Source of the DNA: a virus
UHGV virus genome: UHGV-0273073
Strand: one strand, 5' to 3'
DNA length: 26,336 nt
Shown in pieces: positions 548 to 21,348 of this stretch. Made by a program: the position numbers and the translations under genes. The first letter of the stretch is position 1. Every line of letters starts with the position of its first letter. The notes below the pieces were generated by a model. It saw nothing but the letters and a program-made list of their open reading frames with translations. It made no database searches and was not told the origin of the DNA.

Positions 548-1571
<1,024 letters not shown>

Positions 1572-1933
1572 GGTAATATTAAATCGGAACATTTACATCG
1601 CGGAATGTAAAATTTAAATAAAAAGGACTCTTCCATGAGCCAAAATTCCTGAAATCTTAAGGGTAAGATAAAAGGTCTTAATCAGAATGACACGTTTTAT
1701 TAATAAATAAAGCTATTCTTTCATTGCTGTGTTTTTCTTTACAAAAGTAATCCTTGCTATGGGTGGTTAATCATGCGTTAATGGTGTTCTGGTTTGTTAC
1801 AAATTTATCTGAAGCAGTCATTGTTATAATTTTATTATTTGTACCTCTTGAGATTTCCTTGTTGGTTTTTCTCTCTGATATTTTTTTTCGGACCATTCTG
1901 CCCAAGGGCTAATTTCTTCAAAAGGTAATAATT

Positions 1934-2146
1934 ATGTCTAACAAAATGACTGGTTTAGTGAAATGGTTTAACCCTGAAAAAGGTTTTGGTTTCATCACGC
2001 CGAAAGATGGCAGCAAAGATGTGTTTGTCCATTTCTCAGCAATTCAGAGCAACGATTTCAAAACATTAACTGAGAATCAGGAAGTTGAATTTGGTATTGA
2101 GAACGGACCTAAAGGTCCTGCCGCTGTTCATGTTGTGGCGCTTTGA
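1934..2146 (+). CDS. CspA-family cold-shock protein (CspI/CspB-like prophage paralog)
   Basis: 70 aa, [14 protein letters not shown] and [11 protein letters not shown] motifs; preceded by a long AT-rich leader (1572..1933). Confidence 0.95.
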
Positions 2147-2345
2147 GGTAGACAATATTACAAACCATATTCACTTTAGATGCCCGTGTTGTCATGGTTC
2201 CCAGTATAGAACATCATCTTTTGATGTTTCTGACATGAATCCTTTCGGGGCAAAATGTATCTTTTGTAAATCAATGATGATTACATTTGATAATATTTCA
2301 CAATACTTAAATGCCAGCCGTCTGTCGTTGGATTTAAAAAAGTGA
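2130..2345 (+). CDS. Possible small zinc-ribbon protein (CPCC…C..C), start uncertain
   Basis: ORF track 2085..2345; internal Met at 2130; Cys pattern FRCPCCHG…AKCIFCK; immediately followed by an intrinsic terminator. Confidence 0.3.
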
Positions 2346-2351
2346 AAATGA

Positions 2352-2373
2352 AGGCTCCTTCGGGAGCTTTTTT
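2352..2373 (+). terminator. Rho-independent terminator after the csp/zinc-ribbon unit
   Basis: GCTCC-TTCG-GGAGC hairpin (2354..2367) followed by a T-run (2368..2373). Confidence 0.65.
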
Positions 2374-2417
2374 GCTTGGTGTCTATTCGATGGATACTCA
2401 CATACTACGGTAACATC

Positions 2418-2648
2418 ATGAAAAAAATCATAGTTTTTTTTAACTCTGAACCAGCAGTGGTAGTGCCAGCGATGACTGGAGTTAACACCATCATGCGTGA
2501 ATATCCAAATGGCGAAAAAACACACCTTACTGTAATGGCCGCAGGGTTTCCATCTCTGACCGGAGATCATAAAGTCATTTATGTAGCCGCGGATCGACAT
2601 GTTACTTCAGAAGAAATTCTGGAAGCAGCAATAAGGCTCTTGAGTTGA
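2418..2648 (+). CDS. Hypothetical 76-aa protein
   Basis: ORF track 2376..2648; ATG at 2418 (MKKIIVFF…) is the first ATG after the terminator. Confidence 0.5.
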   Translation: MKKIIVFFNSEPAVVVPAMTGVNTIMREYPNGEKTHLTVMAAGFPSLTGDHKVIYVAADRHVTSEEILEAAIRLLS

Positions 2649-2816
2649 TTTGATGCTATTGCATTGATAATTCAGGAAAATTCTCTTTGTCTGTTTGTGT
2701 AAAATTTAGACTATCGTATGTTGATTATTGCGATGTTTCATCTTATCTTTTACACGTTTGCACCATATAATCGACTTACTGTGTAACTGGAAAGTCATAA
2801 CAGACTAAAAGAGGAA

Positions 2817-2993
2817 ATGATGAATATTGAAAACTTAAAAACAAAAGCAGAAGCAGATATTTCTGAATATATAACAAAAAAAATTATTGAACTTAAGAAA
2901 AAGACCGGGAAAGAAGTTACCAGTATTCAGTTTACCGCACGGGAAAAAATGACGGGTCTTGAAAGCTATGATGTCAAGATTAATTTAATCTGA
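2817..2993 (+). CDS. GnsA/GnsB-family small protein
   Basis: 58-aa ORF absent from the supplied track (below size cut-off). MMNIENLKTKAEADISEYITKKIIELKKKTGKEVTSIQFTAREKMTGLESYDVKINLI matches the Gns family. GAGG Shine-Dalgarno at 2811..2814; the second ATG (2820) is the more likely start. Confidence 0.8.
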   Translation: MMNIENLKTKAEADISEYITKKIIELKKKTGKEVTSIQFTAREKMTGLESYDVKINLI

Positions 2994-3144
2994 TGTATTC
3001 AATAATAAAATTTATCCATAAACCTCGTTTTTACGGGGTTTTGTTATATTTGAATGGTTCCGAATATCTAAATCACAATTGTTGATGGTTTTTATTAAAC
3101 CAATGCAGTCCGGCTCAGGAGTGAGAGAAGCCGGACGTTATGGT

Positions 3145-3570
3145 TTAGCGTGGTAAGATCTGTGTAGTTTTCTGGATGCTTTCAGTAAATAGTAATGAAT
3201 TATCAAAGGTATAGTAATATCTTTTTTGTTCGTGGATATTTGTAACCCACCGAAAAACTCCTGCTTTAGCAAGGTTTCTTCTGTATTCCTGAAATGTGAT
3301 CTCTCTGGATTTCAGCTTATTAGAGGTCGTTTCTATAAGATGCCTATCCTTTGAAAATTTGACAGACACAATGTTTTTTAGGCCCTTTAATAACACTGTA
3401 TTATCATTTTTTAATACAATATGAACATTCTCTGTGGCTAAATAGTAAATGTAATGTGAGACATTGTGACGTTTTAGCTCAGAATAAAACCATTGATAGT
3501 TTAAATCGTTTCGAACTTTATCAAATATTTGTTTAAAAATGACTACCTGATCCATAGATAAACCTTCCAT
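3145..3570 (-). CDS. DUF1398-like (YdfO/YbcV-like) prophage protein; likely start at second Met (3555)
   Basis: ORF track 3145..3570 (141 aa); family assignment from recollection and synteny with Qin-type prophages. Confidence 0.6.
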
Positions 3571-3612
3571 GTGATATGAGGGGGCGTAGTCTGCACGATT
3601 ATCTAAATTGCT

Positions 3613-3846
3613 TCAATCTGGTCTGACCTGTTTTCTGAGCAATTCAGTAATGTCACTCTTTTCTTTGTTTGCTTCAGAAGAAACTCTTTTTTCTGAGCAC
3701 AGTCTCCGGCGGCAGGCTTCAATGACCCAGGCTGAGAAATTCCCGGACCCTTTTTGCTCAAGAGCGATGTTAATTTGTTCAATCATTTGGTTAGGAAAGC
3801 GGATGTTGCGGGTTGTTGTTCTGCGGGTTCTGTTCTTCGTTGACAT
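3613..3846 (-). CDS. Small ribbon-helix-helix-like DNA-binding protein
   Basis: 77 aa; NIRFPNQMIEQINIALEQKGSGNFSAWVIEACRRRL has a beta-strand/helix/helix layout typical of CopG/Arc-type RHH; basic N-terminus. Confidence 0.5.
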   Translation of the reverse strand: MSTKNRTRRTTTRNIRFPNQMIEQINIALEQKGSGNFSAWVIEACRRRLCSEKRVSSEANKEKSDITELLRKQVRPD

Positions 3847-4015
3847 GAGGTTGCCCCGTATTCAGTGTCGCTGATTTGTATTGTCTGAAGTTGTTTTTAC
3901 GTTAAGTTGATGCAGATCAATTAATACGATACCTGCGTCATAATTGATTATTTGACGTGGTTTGATGGCCTCCACGCACGTTGTGATATGTAGATGATAA
4001 TCATTATCACTTTAC

Positions 4016-4223
4016 GGGTCCTTTCCGGTGATCCGACAGGTTACGGGGCGGCGACCTCGCGGGTTTTCGCTATTTATGAAAATTTTCCGGTTTAAGGCGT
4101 TTCCGTTCTTCTTCGTCATAACTTAATGTTTTTATTTAAAATACCCTCTGAAAAGAAAGGAAACGACAGGTGCTGAAAGCGAGCTTTTTGGCCTCTGTCG
4201 TTTCCTTTCTCTGTTTTTGTCCG
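4016..4223 (+). promoter_or_regulatory. cos: Prophage cos site (cosQ-cosN-cosB); cosN 12-nt cohesive-end sequence GGGCGGCGACCT at 4046..4057
   Basis: Sequence matches the lambda genome termini as I recall them (…GGTGATCCGACAGGTTACG | GGGCGGCGACCTCGCGGGTTTTCGCTATTTATGAAAATTTTCCGG…); lies immediately upstream of Nu1. Confidence 0.9.
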
Positions 4224-10190: not shown

Positions 10191-10466
10191 ATGTCTGTAT
10201 ATACAACTGCAGAATTACTGGCATCGACCCAGCATCACTTTAAGTTCGATCCGCTGTTTCTGCGCCTGTTTTTCCGTGAAACCTATCCTTTCACCACGGA
10301 AAAAGTCTATCTCTCACAAATTCCGGGACTGGTAAACATGGCGCTGTACGTTTCGCCGATTGTTTCCGGTGAGGTTATCCGATCCCGTGGCGGCTCCACC
10401 TCTGAATTTACGCCGGGTTATGTCAAACCCAAGCACTTAGCATGGCTTTCTGAGGCTTTCGTGTAG
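10191..10466 (+). pseudogene. E: Major capsid protein E, 5' fragment: codons 1-82 (10191..10436) fused to 9 island-encoded codons then stop
   Basis: MSVYTTAELLASTQHHFKFDPLFLRLFFRETYPFTTEKVYLSQIPGLVNMALYVSPIVSGEVIRSRGGSTSEFTPGYVKPKH is lambda gpE N-terminus; homology ends exactly after His82, followed by LAWLSEAFV*. Confidence 0.92.
10426..10435. repeat. Left copy of 10-bp direct repeat AACCCAAGCA (putative attL core)
   Basis: Identical 10-mer at 20558..20567; both copies sit at the breakpoints of E homology. Confidence 0.8.
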
Positions 10467-10563
10467 TTGCTGGTTTTTACACTTAATCTTTTGATAATAA
10501 AGAATAAGTTTATCTGGCGCTTTCACTGGATTTTCCTCGTTATCTGTGTGTTGCAATCATCTC

Positions 10564-10583
10564 TGTATTGCAGCTTGTATTGC
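10564..10583. repeat. Arm-type direct repeats TGTATTGCA / TGTATTGC at 12-bp phasing (left arm, between attL core and int)
   Basis: The same 9-mer occurs three times at 12-bp phasing on the right arm (20449..20481). Confidence 0.65.
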
Positions 10584-10598
10584 TTTTTGGGGCTAAAA

Positions 10599-11834
10599 AT
10601 GGCTGGCGAGAACAAACTGAGCGACAAAGCACTTAAAGGATATCTGGGGAAACCCAGAGAAAAGCAGATCACCATTGCTGATGGAAAGGGGCTTTCTATT
10701 CGTGTGAGTACCAAGGGGGCTGTGAGCTTTGTTTTCTTCTACAGGTTAGCAGGTGGCCGGGCTGCTCCGGTCTGGCTAACGTTGGGTAAATATCCTGATA
10801 TGTCACTCAAACAGGCAAGAGAAAAGCGCGACGAGTGCCGTGGTTGGTTGGCTGACAAACGTGATCCGCGTATCCAGATTAAGATTCAGGCTGAAGAACG
10901 CTTAAAGCCGGTCACAGTGGAGGATGCACTAAATTACTGGTATGAAAATTACTGTAAGGTGCGTCGTAAAACTCATGCTGTAACGCTTGGCAGATTTCGA
11001 AAGCATATCTTTCCCTATATCGGTCATTTGCCCGTAAATGACACTCACCTATATGAATGGCTGGACTGTTTTGACCGAATTAAACGTAATGCACCAGTTA
11101 TGGCGGCGTATGTTTTTTCTGACACTAAATTAGCTCTTCGTTTTTGTCGGGTACGCCAGTACGCGACGTGTGATGCTTTAAAGGATTTGCGCATGAGTGA
11201 TGTGGGGCAGATTGCAGGTAAGCGGGATCGGGTTCTGGATGAAGCCGAACTGGGCCAGCTCTGGAAGGCAATTTTTGTCGAGCCTGATTTAAAACTAATG
11301 TCTGAATACACGCGAAAAATGTTTGTGCTTTGTACAGTATTTGGATGTCGAATGAGTGAAGCCCGATTATCAGAATGGAGCGAATGGGATCTAGAAAGTT
11401 GGGTTTGGACTGTACCAAAAGAACACTCAAAAACCGGTGTTGAAATCGTCAGACCAGTACCTGAAATTCTACGACAGTGGGTAACGGATGTTCACGAAGA
11501 GACAAAACATACTGGTTATGTGCTGGGAAGTCTGCGAATTAGAGAAAGCGTAAGCAAGATTGGGGGGAAAATCGGTAAACGTTTGGGCCATGAAAAACAA
11601 TGGTCACTACACGACCTTAGAAGAACGCTATCTACTCATCTAAGTGATCTCGGTGTTGAATTTTATGTAGTAGAACAACTGTTAGGCCATGCGCTACCTG
11701 GCGTGGCAGGTGTTTACAACCGGAGTAAGTTTATGGCTAAAAAACTGGATGCTCTGGAACTCTGGACTACATATCTCAATAGCATCGCAGGTGCTGATTC
11801 AAAAGTGACAATCCTCAAACAAAAGGCTGGTTAA
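10599..11834 (+). CDS. int: Tyrosine site-specific integrase, P4 family (N-terminal arm-binding DUF4102-like domain)
   Basis: ATG at 10599 (MAGENKLSDKALKGYLGKP…); catalytic-region motifs HDLRRT and GVYNRSK (Tyr); the track's TTG-initiated extension 10467..10598 covers the arm repeats and is unlikely to be coding. Confidence 0.92.
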   Translation: MAGENKLSDKALKGYLGKPREKQITIADGKGLSIRVSTKGAVSFVFFYRLAGGRAAPVWLTLGKYPDMSLKQAREKRDECRGWLADKRDPRIQIKIQAEERLKPVTVEDALNYWYENYCKVRRKTHAVTLGRFRKHIFPYIGHLPVNDTHLYEWLDCFDRIKRNAPVMAAYVFSDTKLALRFCRVRQYATCDALKDLRMSDVGQIAGKRDRVLDEAELGQLWKAIFVEPDLKLMSEYTRKMFVLCTVFGCRMSEARLSEWSEWDLESWVWTVPKEHSKTGVEIVRPVPEILRQWVTDVHEETKHTGYVLGSLRIRESVSKIGGKIGKRLGHEKQWSLHDLRRTLSTHLSDLGVEFYVVEQLLGHALPGVAGVYNRSKFMAKKLDALELWTTYLNSIAGADSKVTILKQKAG

Positions 11835-11835
11835 C

Positions 11836-12066
11836 ATGAAAAAAATGGCAATTGTTGATAAAAAGGGTCTGGAGTACATTCCTAACATTGACCGAATGAT
11901 CCGTGAGAAAGAATGTCGGGAGCTAACCACTCTTGCGAACAGCACACGCTGGAAGCTGGAGAAGGAAGGAAAATTTCCTAAGCGGATCAAGATTGGTTCC
12001 ACTGCTGTTGCATATCGTCTTTCAGAAGTGCAGGCATGGATTCGAGGTGAGTGGGAAACAACTTAA
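11836..12066 (+). CDS. AlpA-family HTH regulator / excisionase-like protein
   Basis: 76 aa; core RELTTLANSTRWKLEKEGKFPKRIKIGSTAVAYRLSEVQAWI fits the AlpA/Xis pattern; directly downstream of int as in P4-like elements and PICIs. Confidence 0.75.
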   Translation: MKKMAIVDKKGLEYIPNIDRMIREKECRELTTLANSTRWKLEKEGKFPKRIKIGSTAVAYRLSEVQAWIRGEWETT

Positions 12067-12082
12067 CTATTAGGTGGGCATT

Positions 12083-12904
12083 GTGGCTATATTTCATTAT
12101 ACAGATCTTTTTGGTTTGAAAGGTATATTAGACTCTAATTCTTTATGGGCTACAAACATATATTTCTTAAATGATAAAGAGGAGTCTAACCATGGATGTG
12201 AATGCTTTCGAAATACAATTAAAATAGTTGATGACAATATCATTCCAAAAGATAAGAAAACTATTTTGCTCAAGTCTCTTGACATGTATGAGAAAGGGAG
12301 GTTACAAAAAGAAAAAGGGATTGATAAACATGTTTATAGCATCTCTTTTTGTAAGGAAAACGATAAGTTAAGTCAGTGGAGAGGTTACGGAAATAAACAG
12401 GGTGTTTGCATTGAGTTTGATGCGGATGAACTTGTGAGCTTTTCTCAAAATATTTATTTAAATTGTGTTGCACATGATGTTATATATTCAAATAATAACG
12501 ATGTTACTAAGATGAGTAAGGAGTTGGGGGCGTTTTTTTCTTGTAATGGTATTAATATTAAAGAAAAGAATGATCATTTTGTAACAATGGCCTCTACGTA
12601 TCAATTTATATCTAAATACATCCCATTTTTTAAACATCCTAGTTTTATCGAAGAAAATGAATTTAGATTGGTATTTACTCCGCGCATACTAATACCAGAT
12701 GTGCAATTCAGAATAAATAATAATGGTGTCATCCCTTATATCATCATTGGTAATAAAGATCATAGGAAGTTACCAATTAAAAGTATTACTATTGGCCCGA
12801 CAAACGATTATGATTTCATTGAGGCTGGTATAAAAATGTTCTTGGATTCAAAAGGATTTAGTTCAGTGGAAATTAAATCCTCATCAATTCCATTCAGGGG
12901 GTAA
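12083..12904 (+). CDS. Cargo protein of unknown function, AT-rich (possibly DUF2971-like)
   Basis: ORF track 12074..12904; GTG at 12083 preceded by AGGTGG; codon usage and AT content clearly differ from flanking genes; motifs IYFLNDKEE and YSISFCKENDKLSQWRGYGNKQGVCIEF. Confidence 0.7.
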   Translation: MAIFHYTDLFGLKGILDSNSLWATNIYFLNDKEESNHGCECFRNTIKIVDDNIIPKDKKTILLKSLDMYEKGRLQKEKGIDKHVYSISFCKENDKLSQWRGYGNKQGVCIEFDADELVSFSQNIYLNCVAHDVIYSNNNDVTKMSKELGAFFSCNGINIKEKNDHFVTMASTYQFISKYIPFFKHPSFIEENEFRLVFTPRILIPDVQFRINNNGVIPYIIIGNKDHRKLPIKSITIGPTNDYDFIEAGIKMFLDSKGFSSVEIKSSSIPFRG

Positions 12905-12949
12905 GGATTAACACTTTTAATCTATGATGTTATAAAAATGGTGGATAAA

Positions 12950-12969
12950 GGCGACCAGAATTGGTCGCC
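12950..12969. terminator. Hairpin between convergent cargo genes (possible bidirectional terminator)
   Basis: GGCGACCA-GAAT-TGGTCGCC, 8-bp perfect stem. Confidence 0.45.
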
Positions 12970-13035
12970 AATGTGAGTATATAGTTAGCCTTAATCAGAA
13001 TACGAGGTTGTCGACTGATAGGCAATGTGAACAGT

Positions 13036-13392
13036 TCAATATTTAGGTGGTTCAACAAGAGCGTTTATCATTGCTCTCAAATTATCGCGAACACTTATCC
13101 AAGTCTGTTCTGCTCGTTCTAACTCATCAGTGTACAACTTTAATGTTTTATCTATGCCATATGTGGCTATTAAATTTATAGCTTCTTGTAACTTTTCGGG
13201 ATTATTCCTTCTTGGGGGAGTGAATATACCACGGATTTTTCCGGTAATTAAAGCTTTACGGTGTCTACATAGAATACCTTTACTTCCTGCTGGACAATTG
13301 CAAGTCATGATTAGCGAGCCAGAATCGTTTGATACAGTGACTATGTATACATCCAAACTACTGCTACTTGTTGCGAAGAATTCGTATTTCAT
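13036..13392 (-). CDS. Small SWIM-type zinc-finger protein (CxC-x8-CxH)
   Basis: 118 aa; TCNCPAGSKGILCRHRKAL; strong AAGGAG Shine-Dalgarno 7 nt upstream of the ATG on the minus strand. Confidence 0.7.
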   Translation of the reverse strand: MKYEFFATSSSSLDVYIVTVSNDSGSLIMTCNCPAGSKGILCRHRKALITGKIRGIFTPPRRNNPEKLQEAINLIATYGIDKTLKLYTDELERAEQTWISVRDNLRAMINALVEPPKY

Positions 13393-13419
13393 GTGTTAGC
13401 TCCTTGACTTCAATTACTC

Positions 13420-13551
13420 TTATCCTTTTGGTTCAATACCGCGCCGTAGCAGCTCTTTGCGCCCTAATTCTTTAAGCCAGTTGGCTAGGCTTATGCCGTC
13501 GCTCTGCGCTTCTTTGTCGAATTGCTCTTTTAGCTCTGGAGAAATTCGCAT
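13420..13551 (-). CDS. Ribbon-helix-helix (CopG/Arc-like) protein, start uncertain
   Basis: MRISPELKEQFDKEAQSDGISLANWLKELGRKELLRRGIEPKG, C-terminal part of track ORF 13420..13734; 27 nt upstream of the SWIM gene on the same strand. Confidence 0.55.
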   Translation of the reverse strand: MRISPELKEQFDKEAQSDGISLANWLKELGRKELLRRGIEPKG

Positions 13552-13946
13552 TCTGAATTGTGGAGATTGCCCATCACCCTTAGGACTTTTATCGCGTTTG
13601 ATTGTTGACAAGTGACCACCTATTGAATTAGCCTTTTTACTGTTAGGTGACCACCTTAACACGGAGGCACTTAAAAAAGCAAAGCCCGAAGGCGCTAGGA
13701 ACACCAACGGGCTTCTAACCACCAACGATAGCAACAGTATCGAGATAGCTATGAGAAATCATACCACACACCCGCAAGGGCGGGACCCGCACAACCTGAA
13801 TAAATACATCTGGCGTTTTATCGCCCTGAGCACCGCACAACCACGCGTAATACACATCGAGGCCGCCAGCGGACAGGAAGCCCGCCAACAATCCCCAACT
13901 GGCTGCGTGATGATATTCGCCGCCCGTATTCGTCAGGAGGTATGCC

Positions 13947-14132
13947 GTGCTTAAAACCTTCCGTGTATTTGCTCGTGCTGTTAACCCACGAGGCCACACA
14001 ATTGGTATCGCTCAGAACGTGAAGGCTGTTAATGTTCAGACGGCTATTGCTGCGGTGAGAAGCGAATCATCAGAATATGGCTTATCACAAGTCATTATTT
14101 CAGCAGTGTATGAATTAAAAGAGGTGCATTAA
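13947..14132 (+). CDS. Hypothetical small protein, first gene of the replication operon
   Basis: GTG start with perfect AGGAGG 6 nt upstream; stop overlaps the next start. Confidence 0.6.
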   Translation: MLKTFRVFARAVNPRGHTIGIAQNVKAVNVQTAIAAVRSESSEYGLSQVIISAVYELKEVH

Positions 14133-14323
14133 TGCAGGAAATCACATTACACGAAGCCGCTGAACGTGCGCACCAGACAGAGATTATTTGCCGCCTTCTT
14201 GAGGTATACCCTGATAAATTAAATGATGCTGATATATCCGCATTAGCTAGTCTTCTGGCAAGACTGTCAGGAAGTGTTGCACTGTGGTTAATTGATCAGA
14301 GGGTAGAACGTTATGGAGAATAA
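14132..14323 (+). CDS. Hypothetical small protein (operon member)
   Basis: Translationally coupled to flanking ORFs. Confidence 0.55.
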   Translation: MQEITLHEAAERAHQTEIICRLLEVYPDKLNDADISALASLLARLSGSVALWLIDQRVERYGE

Positions 14324-14555
14324 TAAACTTTCGCTTGCAGAGGTGTCGGAATCCATGAACAGTGCAATAAGCTATAATAATTCGGCAATTGAAATTGCAA
14401 ACTTGTGGTTTCAATTGCTGTCAAACAACGAAAGAGATGAATCAACGGCAAGACTTATATTTGCTATTTCTGAATTGCTGGATATTTCCACCAGCAAGAT
14501 AAACAAAGCATTAGAAAAAATTCACGAATTAAAACACCACACAAACGGAATTTAA
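14313..14555 (+). CDS. Hypothetical small protein (operon member)
   Basis: Overlaps the previous ORF; AT-rich. Confidence 0.5.
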   Translation: MENNKLSLAEVSESMNSAISYNNSAIEIANLWFQLLSNNERDESTARLIFAISELLDISTSKINKALEKIHELKHHTNGI

Positions 14556-14559
14556 TTAT

Positions 14560-14859
14560 ATGGGAATGAAAAATACTGGTGTTAATGCCAGCGGCCCCGC
14601 TCGACCTGAATTTATGAACGGCGATATTTACCGCGATAAATACGGCGGCACGGTAACGATTAAAGGCGTGGCAGAACGGCGCATCACTTACCGCCGTGAG
14701 GGGTATAGCTATGACTGCGTGATGCCTGTTTATCAGTTCCGGCGTGATTTTTCCCTGGTATATGCCGCACCCCGCAGTAAGCCCACCAGCAGGGAAAAAG
14801 CGCGGGGAAACATCCAGAAAATGAAAAGCATGATTAACGCATTCAGGGGCAAAAAATGA
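14560..14859 (+). CDS. Hypothetical protein upstream of primase (operon member)
   Basis: 99 aa; stop overlaps the primase ATG (ATGA at 14856). Confidence 0.6.
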   Translation: MGMKNTGVNASGPARPEFMNGDIYRDKYGGTVTIKGVAERRITYRREGYSYDCVMPVYQFRRDFSLVYAAPRSKPTSREKARGNIQKMKSMINAFRGKK

Positions 14860-16607
14860 AACTGGCACCGAACTTAAAAAAACAGCCACGCGACAGACTG
14901 ACAGAGGTAATCATCTTTGCAGGTAGTGATGCGTGGAGCCATGCGAAAGAGTGGCAGGAATGGGCGGGTAAACATATTGCCGCCGACGATGTGCCGCCTG
15001 TCGTGCTGGCTGATGAGCAACTGAAAAACATCACCGATTACCGGATCATTGATGAAGATCGTCAGTGTGTGCGTGTTTACCGCGCAGGACATATCACAGA
15101 GCACAGCATGACGCAGATTGTTACGTTACTGGCTGTGGCTGGAGTGAAGACCGTACACGAATACGCGGGGATTACTGACACCAGCCCCGTGGATTTATCC
15201 GACCAGTTGCCGCGACTCAAAGAGGAATGCGAGCGTGGGGAAAGCCTGGTGCTTAATCTTCCGACGAAGCAAAAGGAGCAACTTTCACAGATGGCAGACA
15301 GTGAGCGGGCACAACTACTTGCCGATCGCTTTGATGGTGTTTGTGTTCATGCAGAAAGTGAAATCGTCCACGTATGGCGCGGCGGGGTATGGTGTCCGGT
15401 CAGCACAATGGAGCTGAGCCGCGAAATGGTGGCGATCTATTCAGAGCACAGGGCCACGTTCAGCAAACGCGTAATCAATAACGCCGTGGAAGCGTTAAAA
15501 GTTATTGCCGCCCCCATGGGGGAGCCGTCCGGTGATTTGCTACCGTTCACTAATGGTGTGCTTAATCTGAAAACGGGGGAATTTTCTCCGCACTCGCCGG
15601 AGCACTGGAGCACCACGCACAATGGTATTGAGTACACGCCACCAGTAGCAGGGGAAAACATCCGCGATAATGCGCCAAATTTCCATAAATGGCTTGAACA
15701 TGCTGCAGGAAAAGACCCGCGCAAGATGATGCGTATATGTGCCGCGTTATACATGATTATGGCGAACCGCTACGACTGGCAGATGTTCATTGAGGCCACC
15801 GGAGACGGGGGAAGCGGTAAGAGTACATTTACCCATATTGCCACCCTGCTTGCAGGCAAACAGAACACCGTAAGCGCAGAGATGACATCACTCGATGATG
15901 CAGGAGGGCGCGCGCAGGTTGTCGTGAGTCGTCTTATCGTCCTTGCCGATCAGCCGAAATATACGGGGGAAGGCACGGGCATCAAGAAAATCACGGGAGG
16001 CGATCCCGTTGAAATCAATCCGAAATATGAGAAGCGATTCACGACGATAATAAGGGCGGTGGTACTGGCAACCAATAACGACCCGATGATCTTTACCGAA
16101 CGGGCCGGAGGTGTGTCACGCCGTCGGGTGATTTTCCGGTTCGACAACATTGTAAGGGAGGACGAAAAAGACAAGGAATTACCGGAAAAGATAGCGGCAG
16201 AAATCCCCGTAATTATCCGCCGCTTGCTGGCTAACTTTGCTGACCCTGAAAAGGCAAGGGCTTTACTACTGGAACAGCGTGACGGTGATGAAGCTCTGGC
16301 AATAAAGCAGCAAACGGATCCAGTTGTTGAGCTTTGCGCGGCGCTTGAGTTTCTGGATGAAGCTCGTGGGCTAATGATGGGCGGTGGTGGTGACTCCGTG
16401 AAGTACACGACCAGAAACAGCCTTTACCGTGTCTATATGGCCTTCATGGCATACACAGGAAAGGGGAAATGTTTGAGCGTGAATGAGTTCGGAAAGGCTA
16501 TGAGGTCAGCGGCGAAAGTTTACGGATATGAATATATTACGCGAAAAGTTAAGGGAGTCACGCAGACCAACGCAACGACTACTGATGATTGCGATGCGTT
16601 TTTATAA
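14856..16607 (+). CDS. Replication primase/helicase (P4-alpha/PICI pri-rep-like, P-loop NTPase)
   Basis: 583 aa; Walker A GDGGSGKST; Walker B-like VLADQ; immediately followed by the iteron array. Confidence 0.85.
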   Translation: MKLAPNLKKQPRDRLTEVIIFAGSDAWSHAKEWQEWAGKHIAADDVPPVVLADEQLKNITDYRIIDEDRQCVRVYRAGHITEHSMTQIVTLLAVAGVKTVHEYAGITDTSPVDLSDQLPRLKEECERGESLVLNLPTKQKEQLSQMADSERAQLLADRFDGVCVHAESEIVHVWRGGVWCPVSTMELSREMVAIYSEHRATFSKRVINNAVEALKVIAAPMGEPSGDLLPFTNGVLNLKTGEFSPHSPEHWSTTHNGIEYTPPVAGENIRDNAPNFHKWLEHAAGKDPRKMMRICAALYMIMANRYDWQMFIEATGDGGSGKSTFTHIATLLAGKQNTVSAEMTSLDDAGGRAQVVVSRLIVLADQPKYTGEGTGIKKITGGDPVEINPKYEKRFTTIIRAVVLATNNDPMIFTERAGGVSRRRVIFRFDNIVREDEKDKELPEKIAAEIPVIIRRLLANFADPEKARALLLEQRDGDEALAIKQQTDPVVELCAALEFLDEARGLMMGGGGDSVKYTTRNSLYRVYMAFMAYTGKGKCLSVNEFGKAMRSAAKVYGYEYITRKVKGVTQTNATTTDDCDAFL

Positions 16608-16620
16608 AAAATGGCAATGG

Positions 16621-16850
16621 TTATCTACCTTGTCTACCTGACTGAAAGAAAATACTTTTATTTCAATGTATTAATGCAGGTAGATAACTATTTTTCACTG
16701 TCTACCTGTTATCTACCTTATCTACCCATTTTTGTAGACAGGTAAGGAGACGGGTAGAGATGAGGTAGACAGCTATTTGGGGCTGTCTACCTCCCTGAAA
16801 CCCGCGCCATTACTGGCCTGATAACTAATCAGGTAGACAAGGTAGACAAG
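16621..16850. repeat. Iteron-type replication origin: at least 12 copies of GTCTACC / GGTAGAC in both orientations plus an AT-rich spacer
   Basis: Copies at about 16623, 16632, 16678, 16701, 16711, 16720, 16734, 16753, 16764, 16785, 16831, 16841; AT-rich 16641..16676. Confidence 0.8.
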
Positions 16851-16896
16851 GTGGTGGTGCACAAAAAACTTTTTAAACGAGGGGGTAAAAATAAAA

Positions 16897-17154
16897 ATGC
16901 ACACATCAGGAAAACTGAACAAACATATAAAGCCACATTACCGCGCCCTTGATATGGCTGAACACTGGCTAAGGGTGGCGATTAAGGCAATAGACCGCAA
17001 CGCCGGGGAAGGATACGCGAAAGCACATCCCGAACTGATAAGCGCATTCATGACAACGGCGGCTGCAAACTTTGCCACGCTGACCGAACGGGAGATTGCC
17101 GAAGCGGAGGAAGTGACAACCATCAATATTAAGTCCGGAGAGCAGGCAGCATGA
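16897..17154 (+). CDS. Hypothetical 85-aa protein
   Basis: Stop overlaps the ssb start. Confidence 0.5.
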   Translation: MHTSGKLNKHIKPHYRALDMAEHWLRVAIKAIDRNAGEGYAKAHPELISAFMTTAAANFATLTEREIAEAEEVTTINIKSGEQAA

Positions 17155-17600
17155 CGGCGCAAATAGCAGCTTACGGGCGGCTGGTGGACGCCCCGCAGAC
17201 AAAACAGACCAGCAAGGGCACCCCCATGACGCTGGCGCGTATGGCGGTATCACTGCCCTGCAGCCAGTCGGATGACGGTCAGGCGACGATGTGGTTATCT
17301 GTTCTGGCGTTTGGCAGACAAGCCGACGCGCTGGCAAAGCATCACAAAGGCGAACTCCTGAGCGTGGCGGGTAACATGCAGGTGAGTCAGTGGACTGGAC
17401 AGAACGGTGAAACGCGGCAGGGCTGGCAGGTTATCGCAGACAGCGTAATCAGTGCGCGAACGGTGCGACCGGGCGGCAAAAAAGGCCAACAGGGGCAGGC
17501 TACTGACGCACTGAACAGAGCAAAACAACAGGCAGATCAGCAAGGAAGCCATCCACCAGTGGGAGATAATGAGCAATGGGGAGATGATATTCCGTTTTAA
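17151..17600 (+). CDS. ssb: Single-stranded DNA-binding protein
   Basis: 149 aa; OB-fold core and acidic C-terminal tail ending DDIPF, as in E. coli SSB. Confidence 0.9.
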   Translation: MTAQIAAYGRLVDAPQTKQTSKGTPMTLARMAVSLPCSQSDDGQATMWLSVLAFGRQADALAKHHKGELLSVAGNMQVSQWTGQNGETRQGWQVIADSVISARTVRPGGKKGQQGQATDALNRAKQQADQQGSHPPVGDNEQWGDDIPF

Positions 17601-17618
17601 ATATTGCCAATAAAAAAG

Positions 17619-17643
17619 GCCGGAAAAAAATAAATTTTCCGGC
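17619..17643 (+). other. Hairpin (9-bp stem GCCGGAAAA / TTTTCCGGC) between ssb and the capsid-homolog gene
   Basis: Perfect inverted repeat with 7-nt loop AAATAAA; no downstream T-run. Confidence 0.4.
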
Positions 17644-17817
17644 ATGCTACATAAATCCAGACCAAAGGGAGTGAAGATATTAACACTAATTATCCGCGCT
17701 GAAGTTGTCATCCCAAAACTTTATACAACATTGCACTCGGTTGCATGTATTCGCATGACAAATATCGGTGATAGCATATATCCACAATTATTTTTAATGA
17801 ATGCAAAGAGGATGCGT

Positions 17818-18858
17818 ATGGTTGATTTATATTCGCCTACCCAGCTTGTACAGGTGGTTAATGCTGTAGATGTACAAAAACAACTAAATGCGTTGTTTAC
17901 CAGTTTGTTTTTTACTCGCTCGGTAATGTTTGAATCGCGCGATATTATTCTTGATACAATCGACGATCCAAATATCCCAATTGCAGCGTTTTGTTCTCCT
18001 ATGGTGGGTAGTAAAGTTTCACGTGACGAAGGGTACGAATCAAAAACAATTCGTCCAGGCTATATGAAGCCGAAAAGCAGCATTGATCCAAATAAGTTAG
18101 CTGTGCGCCCTGCTGGTGTATCACCTGAGCAATACAATGCTTTTGGAGCGCGTAATATTAAAGTTAAACAGGCGATTGTAAATCAGGCTAAAGCTATTCG
18201 TGCACGTATTGAATGGCTTGCCGTTCAGGCAATCACAACGGGGAAAAATATCATTGAGGGCGATGGTATTGAACGTTATGAGCTGGACTGGAATATTAAA
18301 CCACAAAATATCATCACTCAGTCTGGCGGTGCTGAGTGGTCAGGTAAGGATAAAGAAACTTTTGATCCAAATGATGATATTGAGAGCTACGCAGAATTTA
18401 GTGAGGGCGTCACTAATATCATCATTATGGGCGGTAATGTATGGAAGAAATACCGTTCATTCAGAGCGATAAAAGAGGCTCTGGATACCCGTCGTGGTTC
18501 TAATTCCGAACTGGAAACGGCCCTTAAAGACCTTGGTGATTCGGTGAGTTTTAAAGGGTATATGGGCGATGTTGCGATTGTTGTATACAGCGGGCGTTAT
18601 ACCGACGAGGACGGAACTGAAAAACATTTCCTTGATCCTGATTTGATGGTGCTTGGCAATACGGCTCTTCAGGGGATTGTCGCCTATGGCGGTATTCAGG
18701 ATCCGGAGCTAATCCGAATGGGGCTGACTAAAGCCGAACTTGCACCGAAAAACTATATTGTGCCTGGTGATCCGGCTATTGAATATGTGCAGACACATTC
18801 AGCACCACAGCCAATACCGGCCCGCATCAATCGTTTTGTTACCGTTCGCATTGGCTAA
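17818..18858 (+). CDS. Island-encoded major capsid protein homolog (divergent gpE-like)
   Basis: 346 aa from ATG 17818 (AGAGG 6 nt upstream), inside track ORF 17644..18858. Blocks ITQSGGAEWSGKDKETFDPNDDIESYA and DTRRGSNSELETALKDLGDSVSFKGYMGDVAIVVYSG align with ITQSGGTEWSKRDKSTYDPTDDIEAYA and DTRRGSHSELETAVKDLGKAVSYKGMYGDVAIVVYSG of the resident E (20569..21348). Confidence 0.9.
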   Translation: MVDLYSPTQLVQVVNAVDVQKQLNALFTSLFFTRSVMFESRDIILDTIDDPNIPIAAFCSPMVGSKVSRDEGYESKTIRPGYMKPKSSIDPNKLAVRPAGVSPEQYNAFGARNIKVKQAIVNQAKAIRARIEWLAVQAITTGKNIIEGDGIERYELDWNIKPQNIITQSGGAEWSGKDKETFDPNDDIESYAEFSEGVTNIIIMGGNVWKKYRSFRAIKEALDTRRGSNSELETALKDLGDSVSFKGYMGDVAIVVYSGRYTDEDGTEKHFLDPDLMVLGNTALQGIVAYGGIQDPELIRMGLTKAELAPKNYIVPGDPAIEYVQTHSAPQPIPARINRFVTVRIG

Positions 18859-18867
18859 GGGGGAGCA

Positions 18868-19209
18868 ATGGCTACTCATTACACTGAACTCATGGCTGGC
18901 ACTGAAGCACTGGTGACTACGCTGGGGATATTTTCAGCTAATAAAGGGGTAATTCCTGCATTTACGCCACTGATGCAGGAAGATGCAACAGGTGCACTGG
19001 TGGTATGGGATGGTTCGAGCGTAGGTAAAGCGGTTTATGTTTCCGCTGTACAAATCGACACCGCGAAAAAAACACAGGCTCAGGTCTATAAGACAGGTGT
19101 CTTAAATGTTGATGCTCTGAACTGGCCTGAGTCTGTAAAAGAACTGTCAGTAAAGATTGCAGCGTTTGTTGGCTCAGGTATTTCTGTTCAGCCGCTGGCT
19201 CGTGTGTAA
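18868..19209 (+). CDS. Island-encoded head decoration protein homolog (divergent gpD-like)
   Basis: 113 aa; TPLMQEDATGALVVWDGSS…YKTGVLNVDALNWPES…AAFVGSGISV aligns with resident [20 protein letters not shown]…[16 protein letters not shown]…[11 protein letters not shown]. Confidence 0.8.
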   Translation: MATHYTELMAGTEALVTTLGIFSANKGVIPAFTPLMQEDATGALVVWDGSSVGKAVYVSAVQIDTAKKTQAQVYKTGVLNVDALNWPESVKELSVKIAAFVGSGISVQPLARV

Positions 19210-19220
19210 AGGGGGATACA

Positions 19221-19604
19221 ATGCAAAATGATTACAATGACCTTAAGCCAATTGCCGAAATGATGTACCCGAATCCAGCTGTAGAGGAATTAAAAGCTAT
19301 CGCTGACAAAATGTGTTTAAGCGAGCGCCTTGTTGATATGAATCAGGTGATGGAAATTACAACCCTGAGTCGGCGTACACTGCTAAACCTTGAGGCTAGT
19401 GGAGAGTTCCCGGAGCGTGTGCAGGTTACGGAAGGGCGTAAGGCCTGGTATTTAAGTGAAGTGATCGACTGGATAAATAATATTCCTCGCGCTTCTGAAT
19501 ATTGCCGCGTACCTGTCCCAAAAAAGCCAGATGCGGCGCTATGCCTCAAGATTGAGCGTGTACGCCGCAATGCACGGGATGGTCGCTATAAGCTGATTGG
19601 TTGA
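19221..19604 (+). CDS. HTH protein (AlpA/excisionase-like fold with N-terminal extension) adjacent to the cos-like site
   Basis: 127 aa; MNQVMEITTLSRRTLLNLEASGEFPERVQVTEGRKAWYLSEVIDWI. Confidence 0.6.
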   Translation: MQNDYNDLKPIAEMMYPNPAVEELKAIADKMCLSERLVDMNQVMEITTLSRRTLLNLEASGEFPERVQVTEGRKAWYLSEVIDWINNIPRASEYCRVPVPKKPDAALCLKIERVRRNARDGRYKLIG

Positions 19605-19629
19605 TGAAATTAGGGCCCGCTCTGGCTGG

Positions 19630-19838
19630 CGGGTCCTTTCCGGCGATCTGACAGGCTACGGGGCGTCAGGCGCGCGGATTTTCGCTATTTATGAAAATTT
19701 TCCGGTTTAAGGCGTTTCCGTTCTTCTTCGTCGTAACTTAATGTTTTTATTTAAAATACCCCCTGAAAAGAAAGGAAACGACAGGTGCTGAAAGCGAGCT
19801 TTTTGGCCTCTGTCGTTTCCTTTCTCGTTTTTTGTTCA
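19630..19838 (+). promoter_or_regulatory. Island cos-like packaging site: cosQ/cosB nearly identical to the prophage cos (4016..4223), divergent cosN-equivalent 12-mer GGGCGTCAGGCG at 19661..19672
   Basis: By-eye alignment: about 150 bp of the cosB arm differ by only a few substitutions; the cosN 12-mer differs at 5 of 12 positions; no terminase genes in the island. Confidence 0.85.
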
Positions 19839-20185
19839 ACAATTGCGCGGTAGCAACTCGCCTTTCTGCTGCTGGAACTTATCCGGCACGTTTCCAGTGA
19901 TATCTGTCAGACAGCAGGCAAACAGGAGACAACGCAGTCGGACAGCACGACCGCTGAAAATTACGCGCGTGTGGTGCTTGAGGTTATGCGCCGTGACGGT
20001 ATCGAGCTTAACGGCGTGGATATGTGCAACATACGCACCAGAGTTCTGGAGTTGTTGCCATATCGTCGCCGTTCCATGTAGCGAAGGGAGAGCGCGAAAA
20101 ACACTTACCAGTGGAAGAAGCAGGAGCGGTTACGGCGGTAACTTGCTGATATTCCCGATAACGCAAAATTGCGTTGGCTGGCAGA

Positions 20186-20404
20186 GTGCAAATTTGCACG
20201 ATGGTCTAACCCATTGATTCTTTCGAAAATCACCATTGGGGGATAACGGGGGAATAAGCCTAACCCATTGATTCTTCCACAATCCTCAATTTGAGGAGAG
20301 CGGAATTATTACATGGCTGGATCAGGACTCCTTGAATTCAAGGAGTTCTCCTGTGTGAAAATGAAATTACCCAAGTTGGTGGGTGAGTTGCAGATCTGCA
20401 ACTC
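20186..20404. promoter_or_regulatory. Cluster of four palindromes in the island right arm: 20186..20199, 20284..20296, 20328..20345, 20385..20404
   Basis: GTGCAAATTTGCAC (14 bp, perfect), CCTCAATTTGAGG (imperfect), CTCCTTGAATTCAAGGAG (18 bp, perfect), GAGTTGCAGATCTGCAACTC (20 bp, perfect). Confidence 0.6.
20206..20276. repeat. Two copies of the 17-mer CTAACCCATTGATTCTT (20206..20222, 20260..20276), resembling the att core (AACCCA…)
   Basis: Exact direct repeat; shares AACCCA with the core AACCCAAGCA. Confidence 0.6.
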
Positions 20405-20448
20405 GGCTATGAAACTTAATAATCGAACAGCATGTAAATTCATTTCTG

Positions 20449-20481
20449 TGTATTGCAGCATGTATTGCAGCATGTATTGCA
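20449..20481. repeat. Three phased copies of TGTATTGCA (12-bp period), right-arm arm-type sites
   Basis: 20449, 20461, 20473; the same motif occurs twice on the left arm (10564..10583). Confidence 0.65.
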
Positions 20482-20557
20482 ACATAGTCATTCTGGTAGA
20501 GATTATGCTCTATTTTTCCTCTTATATCATTCACATACTTACGTCATTGACTCATGT

Positions 20558-20567
20558 AACCCAAGCA
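20558..20567. repeat. Right copy of 10-bp direct repeat AACCCAAGCA (putative attR core)
   Basis: Identical to 10426..10435; E homology resumes 1 nt after it. Confidence 0.8.
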
Positions 20568-20568
20568 T

Positions 20569-21348
20569 GAGGTGAATCCGCAGATGACCCTGCGTCGCCT
20601 GCCGGATGAAGATCCGCAGAACCTGGCTGACCCGGCTTACCGTCGTCGCCGTATTATTCGGCAGAATATGCTGGATGAAAATCTGGCGATTGCCCAGGTC
20701 GAAGAGATGCAGGCAGTTTCTGCCGTGCTTAAGGGCAAATACACCATGACCGGTGAAGCCTTCGATCCGGTTGAGGTGGATATGGGCCGCAGTGCGGCGA
20801 ATAACATCACGCAGTCCGGCGGCACAGAGTGGAGCAAGCGTGACAAGTCCACGTATGACCCGACCGACGATATCGAAGCCTACGCGCTGAACGCCAGCGG
20901 TGTGGTGAATATCATCGTGTTTGATCCGAAAGGCTGGGCGCTGTTCCGTTCCTTCAAGGCCGTCAAGGAGAAGCTGGATACCCGTCGCGGCTCTCATTCC
21001 GAGCTGGAGACAGCGGTAAAAGACCTGGGCAAAGCGGTGTCTTATAAGGGAATGTATGGCGATGTGGCCATCGTCGTGTATTCCGGACAGTACGTGGAAA
21101 ACGGCGTCAAAAAGAACTTCCTGCCGGACAACACGATGGTGCTGGGGAACACTCAGGCACGCGGTCTGCGCACCTATGGTTGCATTCAGGATGCGGACGC
21201 ACAGCGCGAAGGCATTAACGCCTCTGCCCGTTACCCGAAAAACTGGGTGACCACCGGCGACCCGGCGCGTGAGTTCACCATGATTCAGTCAGCACCGCTG
21301 ATGCTGCTGGCTGACCCTGATGAGTTCGTGTCCGTTCAACTGGCGTAA
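20569..21348 (+). pseudogene. E: Major capsid protein E, 3' portion (codons 83-341), separated from its 5' part by the island
   Basis: Frame reads TAA-P-K-H-EVNPQMTLRRLPDEDPQNL… through the normal C-terminus …DPDEFVSVQLA; 82 + 259 residues = 341 as in lambda gpE; an in-frame TAA (20557..20559) lies just upstream. Confidence 0.92.

Follow-up and report, generated by a model that had tools for sequence, protein, structure and literature searches.

The DUF2971 family was assigned in a 2025 survey to the HYE clade of ADP-ribosyltransferases (ARTs), related to DarT, AbiGi and Tox-ART-HYD1, and its described features are a conserved tyrosine, an ExE motif and, between strands 1-2 and 4-5, large inserts of helical structure (PMC12522546). 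A role in phage defence has been validated for Aristaios, an Abi-like protein of 316 aa encoded by a single gene on the Lactococcus plasmid pUCCL641 (Grafakou et al. 2024, PMC11381338); its phenotype is of the abortive-infection type, and in Skunavirus it blocks transcription and, as a result, the production of protein (PMC11381338, PMC13064643, PMC12967558). Here we describe a DUF2971 gene in UHGV virus genome UHGV-0273073, the whole 26,336-nucleotide stretch of which is referred to as the window. The gene, which we call the cargo gene, lies at 12083-12904 on the plus strand, encodes 273 aa and is predicted to specify a DarT-like ART. It follows the int and alpA genes of a phage satellite. 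On balance, we favour the reading that it is an Aristaios-like abortive-infection or defence effector, a DUF2971 ART carried as a one-gene cassette in a hotspot of a helper-embedded phage-inducible chromosomal island (HE-PICI).

The cargo protein and Aristaios have in common the DUF2971 domain, a stand-alone architecture that lacks a partner gene, a length of about 270-316 aa, a predicted ART fold and a mobile carrier. They differ in that Aristaios comes from another phylum and from a plasmid rather than a phage satellite, and the likeness between the two is known at the level of the Pfam family. Moreover, the phenotype of Aristaios has been demonstrated, whereas the cargo protein is known here from its sequence and a structural model.

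The island that carries the gene is of an already known type. HE-PICIs integrate into late genes, and the one designated 11capE uses the site E:Phage_cap_E with a 10-bp identity block (Tommasini, Mageeney & Williams 2023, PMC10111431). Our island shares with 11capE the lambda-E-like capsid site, the 10-bp identity block, a doubled TGTATTGCA arm motif, the order int-alpA-...-primase-capsid and the co-orientation with the late operon. Because the site, the identity block and the arm motif equal the published description, we conclude that the carrier is an HE-PICI within its helper prophage's capsid gene. A preliminary description of this DNA had likened the position of the gene to that of variable cargo in P4-like satellites and PICIs; the carrier is indeed a phage satellite and a PICI, of the helper-embedded kind, and it is not P4-like. 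The zone after alpA has been called the 'Bro zone', a region of DNA-interactive proteins and immunity RNAs whose defence cargo was not analysed (PMC10111431), whereas here it is occupied by an ART-type cassette, as it is in relatives by TIR or AbiC-type genes. The hotspots of P4 (Rousset et al. 2022, PMC9122126) and PICI-encoded immune systems likewise combine fixed flanks with highly variable, AT-rich defence cargo, mostly of one or two genes; in contrast to the P4 hotspots, the cargo described here belongs to another satellite family and to other positions, after alpA and before attR.

A conserved gene with a predicted ART fold

The cargo ORF is real rather than a chance product of AT-rich DNA, and it is under purifying selection. 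This conclusion follows from the small chance of a 273-codon open frame in DNA of this composition (p ~1e-10, by hand arithmetic at ~0.08 stops per codon), from the number of homologues, and from E. coli alleles that differ by 2.6-5.2% of nucleotides, have dN/dS values of 0.11-0.41 and lack internal stops. The homologues amount to 293 in a 90%-clustered database and to 13,073 representatives (E <=0.001) in a 50%-clustered library, nearly all of which match residues 3-272. The preliminary description had placed the ORF at these same positions, with a lower GC content and a different codon usage than its neighbours; both statements agree with our measurements. With 30.9% GC (0.309) and 27.4% GC at third codon positions (GC3, 0.274), the gene has the lowest values of all island genes; GC and GC3 are 0.453 and 0.393 for int, and GC is 0.442 for alpA, 0.516 for the primase gene and 0.54-0.60 for the helper head genes. 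Among E. coli islands, the cargo gene diverges by more (three allele groups; L019, L020) than int-alpA, which differs by ~1-4% in the sister islands that were compared, suggesting either repeated exchange of the cassette or faster evolution.

Our ORF listing gives the ORF as 12074-12904, from a more upstream GTG. The GTG at 12083 is nevertheless the likely start, because it is preceded by a Shine-Dalgarno sequence read as AGGTGGG (12072-12078, plus strand, 4 nt before the GTG), because PGAP places the start of identical genes in complete E. coli genomes at the equivalent GTG, and because the N-termini of homologues (MxI[FY]HYTD) align with it. From this start, the gene lies 16 nt past the alpA stop and is co-oriented with alpA, as expected from its reported placement directly after int-alpA, two genes whose identities Pfam confirms.

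Membership of DUF2971, which the preliminary description had tentatively suggested from two motifs, NIYFLNDKEE and YSISFCKENDKLSQWRGYGNKQGVCIEF, is borne out by a profile search: both motifs are in the translation, and the Pfam model PF11185 matches with E 9.5e-12, scoring 46.5 bits where the curated cut-off is 22, with the full model (1-89) aligned to residues 98-196. All 67 homologues that we aligned, with identities down to 27%, match the same model. Eleven residues are invariant in this alignment (Y6, N30, D31, E34, Q98, W99, Y102, K184, E191, E193 and R195), and H5 is conserved in at least 90% of the sequences. Sub-threshold Pfam matches to Tox-ART-HYD1 were found in 24 of the 67, through an N-terminal HYT strand, and to AbiGi in three. 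NCBIfam had no match for the cargo protein or for seven other island ORFs tested, and a search of viral structures in BFVD returned only uncharacterised proteins.

An AlphaFold2 model built on the 67-homologue alignment is confident (mean predicted local distance difference test score, pLDDT, 87.7; predicted template modelling score, pTM, 0.85), and structure comparison detects an ART beta-sandwich core in it. The top Foldseek match is Mycobacterium tuberculosis DarT (E 4.6e-3, probability 0.97), followed by Thermus DarT and by Tpt1. As in the published account of the family, which these results reproduce, the model has helical inserts (residues 32-74 and 141-182), and E191-x-E193 opens the strand 193-200. 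Matched by position in the model, the residues follow the ART motif pattern of a histidine on strand 1, an aromatic tyrosine and an acidic [QE]xE, here H5, Y6, Y102 and E191-x-E193. Because a DarT/Tpt1-like fold is combined with retained H, Y and ExE residues, we propose that the protein is an NAD+-dependent ART. By its predicted fold it would be a divergent ART of the H-Y-E type, whose catalytic activity we infer. The remark in the preliminary description that no nuclease or ATPase motif could be recognised must therefore be amended, since structure prediction points to a recognisable catalytic fold, that of a DarT-like ART.

The nearest solved structures to the model are those of DarT from the DarTG system (PDB 7omv, 7yk3, 7omu and 8baq), and the structural similarity is moderate. 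From its sequence, the cargo protein is not a member of the DarT family, because none of the 67 members has a Pfam match to DarT (DUF4433) at E values up to 1 and no DarG macrodomain antitoxin was found beside the gene, whose neighbours are alpA, a SWIM gene and an Arc/HicB-like gene. A sequence-profile search of the PDB found no DarT chain; its matches to GABA-A receptors (E ~0.1) are due to chance, through an LWxxxxFLNDK string.

The protein might also be a catalytically inactive, ART-derived binder, sensing NAD+ or nucleotides or binding nucleic acid in a regulatory or accessory role. This would fit the remoteness of its similarity to active ARTs and the poor conservation of the motif I histidine across the wider DUF2971 family (PMC12522546). 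The near-constancy of H5 and the invariance of Y6, Y102, E191 and E193 in the 67 sequences are, however, typical of a retained active site, and we consider an inactive protein quite unlikely.

An exchangeable slot after alpA

In blastn comparisons with two sister islands (L005 and L006), homology breaks off on the left at 12042-12054 and on the right at 12947. Relatives can be aligned as far as 12042-12057, within the final alpA codons, which form the left recombination boundary of the cassette; in backbones of the SWIM type, homology resumes at 12947, three bases 5' of a hairpin at 12950-12969. Since homology stops at about 12054 and resumes at 12947, the exchanged unit is 12055-12946, a one-gene cassette that differs between islands with shared flanks. 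No second or antisense ORF within it is conserved across genera.

The preliminary description had suggested examining the same slot in related islands, where a gene of the conserved core would recur and variable cargo would not. At least eight different occupants of the slot were found. Where sister islands use this capsid-gene site, it holds a CAP12/Pycsar-type TIR protein (PADLOC PDC-S35, E 7e-67), putAbiC (in 11 genomes), a protein of 265 aa whose N-terminal segment is hydrophobic (4 genomes; L005), a 273-aa protein unrelated to the DUF2971 cargo (4 genomes; L006), an uncharacterised 305-aa protein, a 168-aa membrane protein or a copy of IS5. The 265-aa and 273-aa proteins were considered as divergent DUF2971 members and rejected as unrelated (hhalign probability <1%). 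Among 5,426 complete E. coli genomes, int-alpA is present in 175 (at least 95% identity and 80% coverage) and the DUF2971 gene in 36, these being separate genome counts, with all five of the DUF2971-positive genomes that were opened carrying it in the same island type. The gene is thus not a conserved core gene of the island, and the slot after alpA is a true variable-cargo position that holds defence-type genes.

The slot is also used outside E. coli. In Klebsiella aerogenes and Buttiauxella, helper-embedded satellites have an orthologue of 59-60% identity immediately behind int-alpA; their insertion sites are other late genes, and the primase of the Klebsiella satellite is of a different type. 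In Enterobacter (43-47% identity), two cargo genes are stacked, with DUF2971 in second place; the gene ahead of it is 71% identical to the sole slot occupant of one E. coli island. A gene that recurs in one slot from genus to genus, and yet is dispensable within a lineage, bears the mark of accessory or defence cargo that is being shuffled and not of a core satellite function. In one K. aerogenes assembly, the int-alpA-DUF2971-primase-capsid satellite is present both integrated in a prophage (L008) and as a separate circular record of 10,541 bp (L009, CP142848.1), which has the look of a satellite, excised or episomal, that was deposited as a 'plasmid'.

Homologues further removed in sequence occur as solitary genes, either on plasmids or surrounded by genes of the mobile-element type. 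Abi_C and DUF3800 come after the one on an IncI plasmid; on a Klebsiella plasmid the homologue is flanked by alpA and IS5, in Deinococcus it adjoins an MmeI-type enzyme, and in Symbiopectobacterium it stands among toxin-antitoxin (TA) loci. In a tblastn search of a plasmid collection with the cargo protein, DUF2971 homologues were found in 568 plasmid records; neither in this search nor in one with a homologue from the Streptococcus satellite Javan305 was Lactococcus among the matches listed or the ten most frequent genera.

This distribution bears on whether the gene serves the satellite itself. An ART made only on induction, from the AlpA-activated operon or through read-through of the helper's late operon, could act on the helper's DNA or proteins or on host RNA polymerase, modifying them so as to bias replication and packaging in favour of the satellite or to time the helper's late functions. 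Several features are in keeping with such a role: the gene follows alpA closely and shares the orientation of both alpA and the interrupted late gene, the orthologues in helper-embedded satellites are placed alike in four genera, and the helper-embedded configuration has been described as cis-regulatory (PMC10111431). The gene has a strong Shine-Dalgarno sequence and no promoter of its own was detected, but the promoter scan is uninformative, having returned fewer sites than expected by chance. Expression confined to induction would, in addition, account for a dispensable antitoxin. An essential function in the satellite life cycle is nevertheless disfavoured, because the gene is replaceable and dispensable in sister islands, where TIR, AbiC-like or membrane proteins stand in its place. 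Outside satellites, homologues number in the thousands as lone genes of plasmids and chromosomes, and the validated family member, Aristaios, serves host defence. Because the gene is missing from most sister islands and its relatives abound outside satellites, we rate manipulation of the helper below the defence reading, as a rather improbable alternative.

Another alternative is an offensive or counter-defence ART that disables host or competitor immunity in the manner of phage Alt or Mod, or else a secreted virulence effector. About 18% of DUF2971 proteins are predicted effectors, and some Legionella members have been proposed to be secreted virulence effectors (PMC12522546); phage genomes also carry members of the family (phrog_1762, E 1e-27; six phage records). 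No secretion-system genes are among those identified in the window, where no signal-peptide or secretion predictor was run, and the other occupants of the slot are defence-type rather than anti-defence genes. The homologue on the IncI plasmid, too, keeps company with Abi_C and DUF3800. We hold this the least probable of the readings considered, and very unlikely.

Finally, the kinship of the fold to the DarT toxins of DarTG suggests the toxin of an addiction or stabilisation module that maintains the island; its unrecognised antitoxin might be a small RNA or the product of the SWIM or Arc/HicB-like gene. The presence of a HicB/Arc-like gene nearby and the homologue among TA loci in Symbiopectobacterium are compatible with this. 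Against it, neither a macrodomain nor any other conserved partner is present, exchange involves a single gene without a conserved antisense or second ORF, and Rfam finds no RNA family in the island, its single match in the window being a cspA thermoregulator in the helper prophage. The SWIM and Arc-like genes accompany unrelated cargo and are missing from other islands. In particular, we tried SWIM as a cognate partner and rejected it: because it also adjoins unrelated cargo (L005, L006) and is missing elsewhere (L007, L004, L014-16), it is a backbone neighbour and not a specific partner of the cargo. A TA toxin is, in our estimate, about as improbable as an inactive binder; these two readings and that of a counter-defence protein or effector are less well supported than a defence role.

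A second cargo hotspot lies before attR (window 19605-20557; L001:12387-13145, L002:11212-12928, L003:11306-12448). In relatives it holds TIR-DUF3298, GmrSD_N with HEPN (PD-T4-2/NsnA-like), or a genuine DUF2971 protein of the PADLOC type PDC-S31; in the window it consists of mosaic DNA unlike that of the relatives, with no ORF that has a family match. PDC-S31, a DUF2971-type defence-island candidate, is a distant member of the same superfamily as the cargo protein, which matches its hidden Markov model weakly and in part (E 1.3e-5, 23 bits, residues 67-171). The second-hotspot protein of the sister island matches it with E 4.6e-25 and is 21% identical to the cargo protein. No mention of PDC-S31 was found in the papers searched, and PDC-S31 is itself a prediction. 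Proteins of 254-265 aa that have no Pfam match and are hydrophobic in their N-terminal segment form a further family, observed in L011 (6212-6976), L012 (6207-6974) and L005 (7453-8250). This family is the only occupant of the slot after alpA in four E. coli genomes and stands upstream of DUF2971 in the stacked cargo of Enterobacter satellites; it is possibly an independent defence gene or an occasional partner of DUF2971.

The carrier island and its helper prophage

The island comprises 10,132 bp (window 10426-20567) between 10-bp direct repeats of AACCCAAGCA in the lambda-E-like major capsid gene of the helper prophage, which is split into an N-terminal fragment (10191-10436, plus strand) and a C-terminal fragment (20558-21348, plus strand). 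The attL core AACCCAAGCA (10426-10435, plus strand) lies within the codons for K-P-K-H of the capsid gene, and the attR core (20558-20567, plus strand) repeats it directly. Joining the flanks in silico across AACCCAAGCA yields an intact capsid protein of 341 aa. A repeat search identified the doubled arm-type motif GTATTGCAGC near attL (10560-10583, plus strand), matching the published HE-PICI motif tgTGTATTGCa x2, and further repeats of GTATTGCAGC, also read from the sequence, near attR (20445-20480, plus strand).

From left to right, the island carries int, alpA, the cargo gene, a leftward operon with the Arc/HicB-like and SWIM genes, an Icd-like repressor gene with small ORFs, DUF4222, a D5-type primase gene, iteron-like repeats, SSB, capsid and decoration genes, an AlpA-like helix-turn-helix gene and a copy of the cos region. 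The tyrosine integrase gene (10599-11834, plus strand) has an arm-binding domain (Pfam Arm-DNA-bind_3 and Phage_integrase), and alpA, the satellite activator or excisionase gene, lies at 11836-12066 on the plus strand (Pfam Phage_AlpA, E 3e-15). Convergent to the cargo gene is the SWIM zinc-finger gene (13036-13392, minus strand; Pfam SWIM), preceded in its leftward operon by the first gene, which encodes the Arc/HicB-like small repressor (13420-13614, minus strand; a weak Pfam HicB match, the PHROG Arc-like repressor and the PGAP annotation in L005). Between the convergent cargo and SWIM genes stands a GC-rich 8-bp hairpin of about -15 kcal/mol (12950-12969). It is probably the terminator of the leftward operon, because TTTAT follows it on the minus strand, and it is part of the conserved backbone, homology to which resumes at 12947; a consensus terminator scan did not call it, for want of a canonical T-run on the plus strand.

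The control region at 13420-13954 is divergent, with the leftward Arc/HicB-like and SWIM operon facing the rightward Icd-like repressor gene (13751-13954). The latter, a 'transcriptional repressor', heads the replication operon, and in relatives PGAP annotates a pseudogene on the opposite strand. The primase gene (D5_N/DUF5906 in Pfam; 14856-16607, plus strand) lies in the replication zone, and directly 3' of it, at 16620-16792, are iteron-like direct repeats of GTTATCTACCTTGTCTACC and AGGTAGA..TCTACCT palindromes, which are probably the satellite's replication origin. The satellite's own major capsid protein of 346 aa and its head-decoration proteins are encoded at 17818-19209 on the plus strand, as judged from PGAP annotation in relatives and from translation. 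At 19630-19835 the satellite carries a 206-bp copy, 93.7% identical, of helper sequence at 4015-4220, directly upstream of the small-terminase gene; the copy is probably a cos site for hijacking the packaging of the helper. A nu1-like ORF found in relatives is replaced in the window.

In the helper prophage, the interval 1500-4100 between the lysis and terminase genes is an accessory region of low GC content (36.5%) that looks like a Qin/Rac-type moron region. It contains a Csp-family cold-shock gene with the Rfam cspA thermoregulator (1788-2173) and GnsB-like and YlcI/YnfO-like ORFs, all of these protein names, Csp included, being read from translations only.

A proposed role in phage defence

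Overall, an anti-phage role is the most likely one for the cargo protein, supported as it is by homology to Aristaios and by context; its target, trigger, timing of expression and anti-phage phenotype are those that we infer. We propose that the protein would be silent or inactive in the lysogen until phage infection, or the switching on of the alpA operon or of the helper late transcript, triggers it. The active enzyme would then use NAD+ to ADP-ribosylate either a nucleic acid, single-stranded DNA or RNA as in DarT and Tpt1-like enzymes, or the transcription machinery. Phage gene expression would be shut down and phage development aborted, and the consortium of satellite, helper and host would be guarded against competing phages. 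Restraint without an antitoxin might be achieved in two ways: infection could activate a pre-made protein, or transcription of the gene could be withheld until AlpA, or read-through of the helper late transcript, turns it on. The latter grades into the chief alternative considered above, an ART made only on induction to serve the satellite.

A bolder version, which we regard as unlikely, is that of an antitoxin-less, DarT-like nucleic-acid ART under purely transcriptional control, silent in the lysogen and induced by AlpA or by helper late read-through. At a defined late stage such an enzyme would put marks on DNA or RNA or block them, and so either sabotage superinfecting competitors or bias replication and packaging to the disadvantage of the satellite's own helper. 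If true, ADP-ribosylation based on timing would be a new use in the conflict between satellite and helper.

The DUF2971 family, its prediction as an ART, a validated single-gene defence member, the type of carrier and the existence of defence hotspots in satellites are already published. Immune cargo in Gram-negative PICIs was, moreover, reportedly described by Fillol-Salom et al. in 2022. Our analysis adds that an enterobacterial subfamily of DUF2971 is a discrete one-gene cassette; that HE-PICIs have two hotspots of the defence type, after alpA and before attR, of which the original 2023 description gave no such analysis; and that, as far as the model can tell, the nearest solved structures are specifically DarT enzymes. 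These findings do not overturn current understanding. DUF2971 is a very large family, yet Aristaios is the sole experimentally characterised member that we found, and a substrate or trigger is known for none. The E. coli cargo gene is a clean, naturally swappable one-gene cassette with a tractable host and phages, and as such it offers an entry point to the targets of DUF2971 ARTs and to the way in which a DarT-like enzyme without an antitoxin is restrained.
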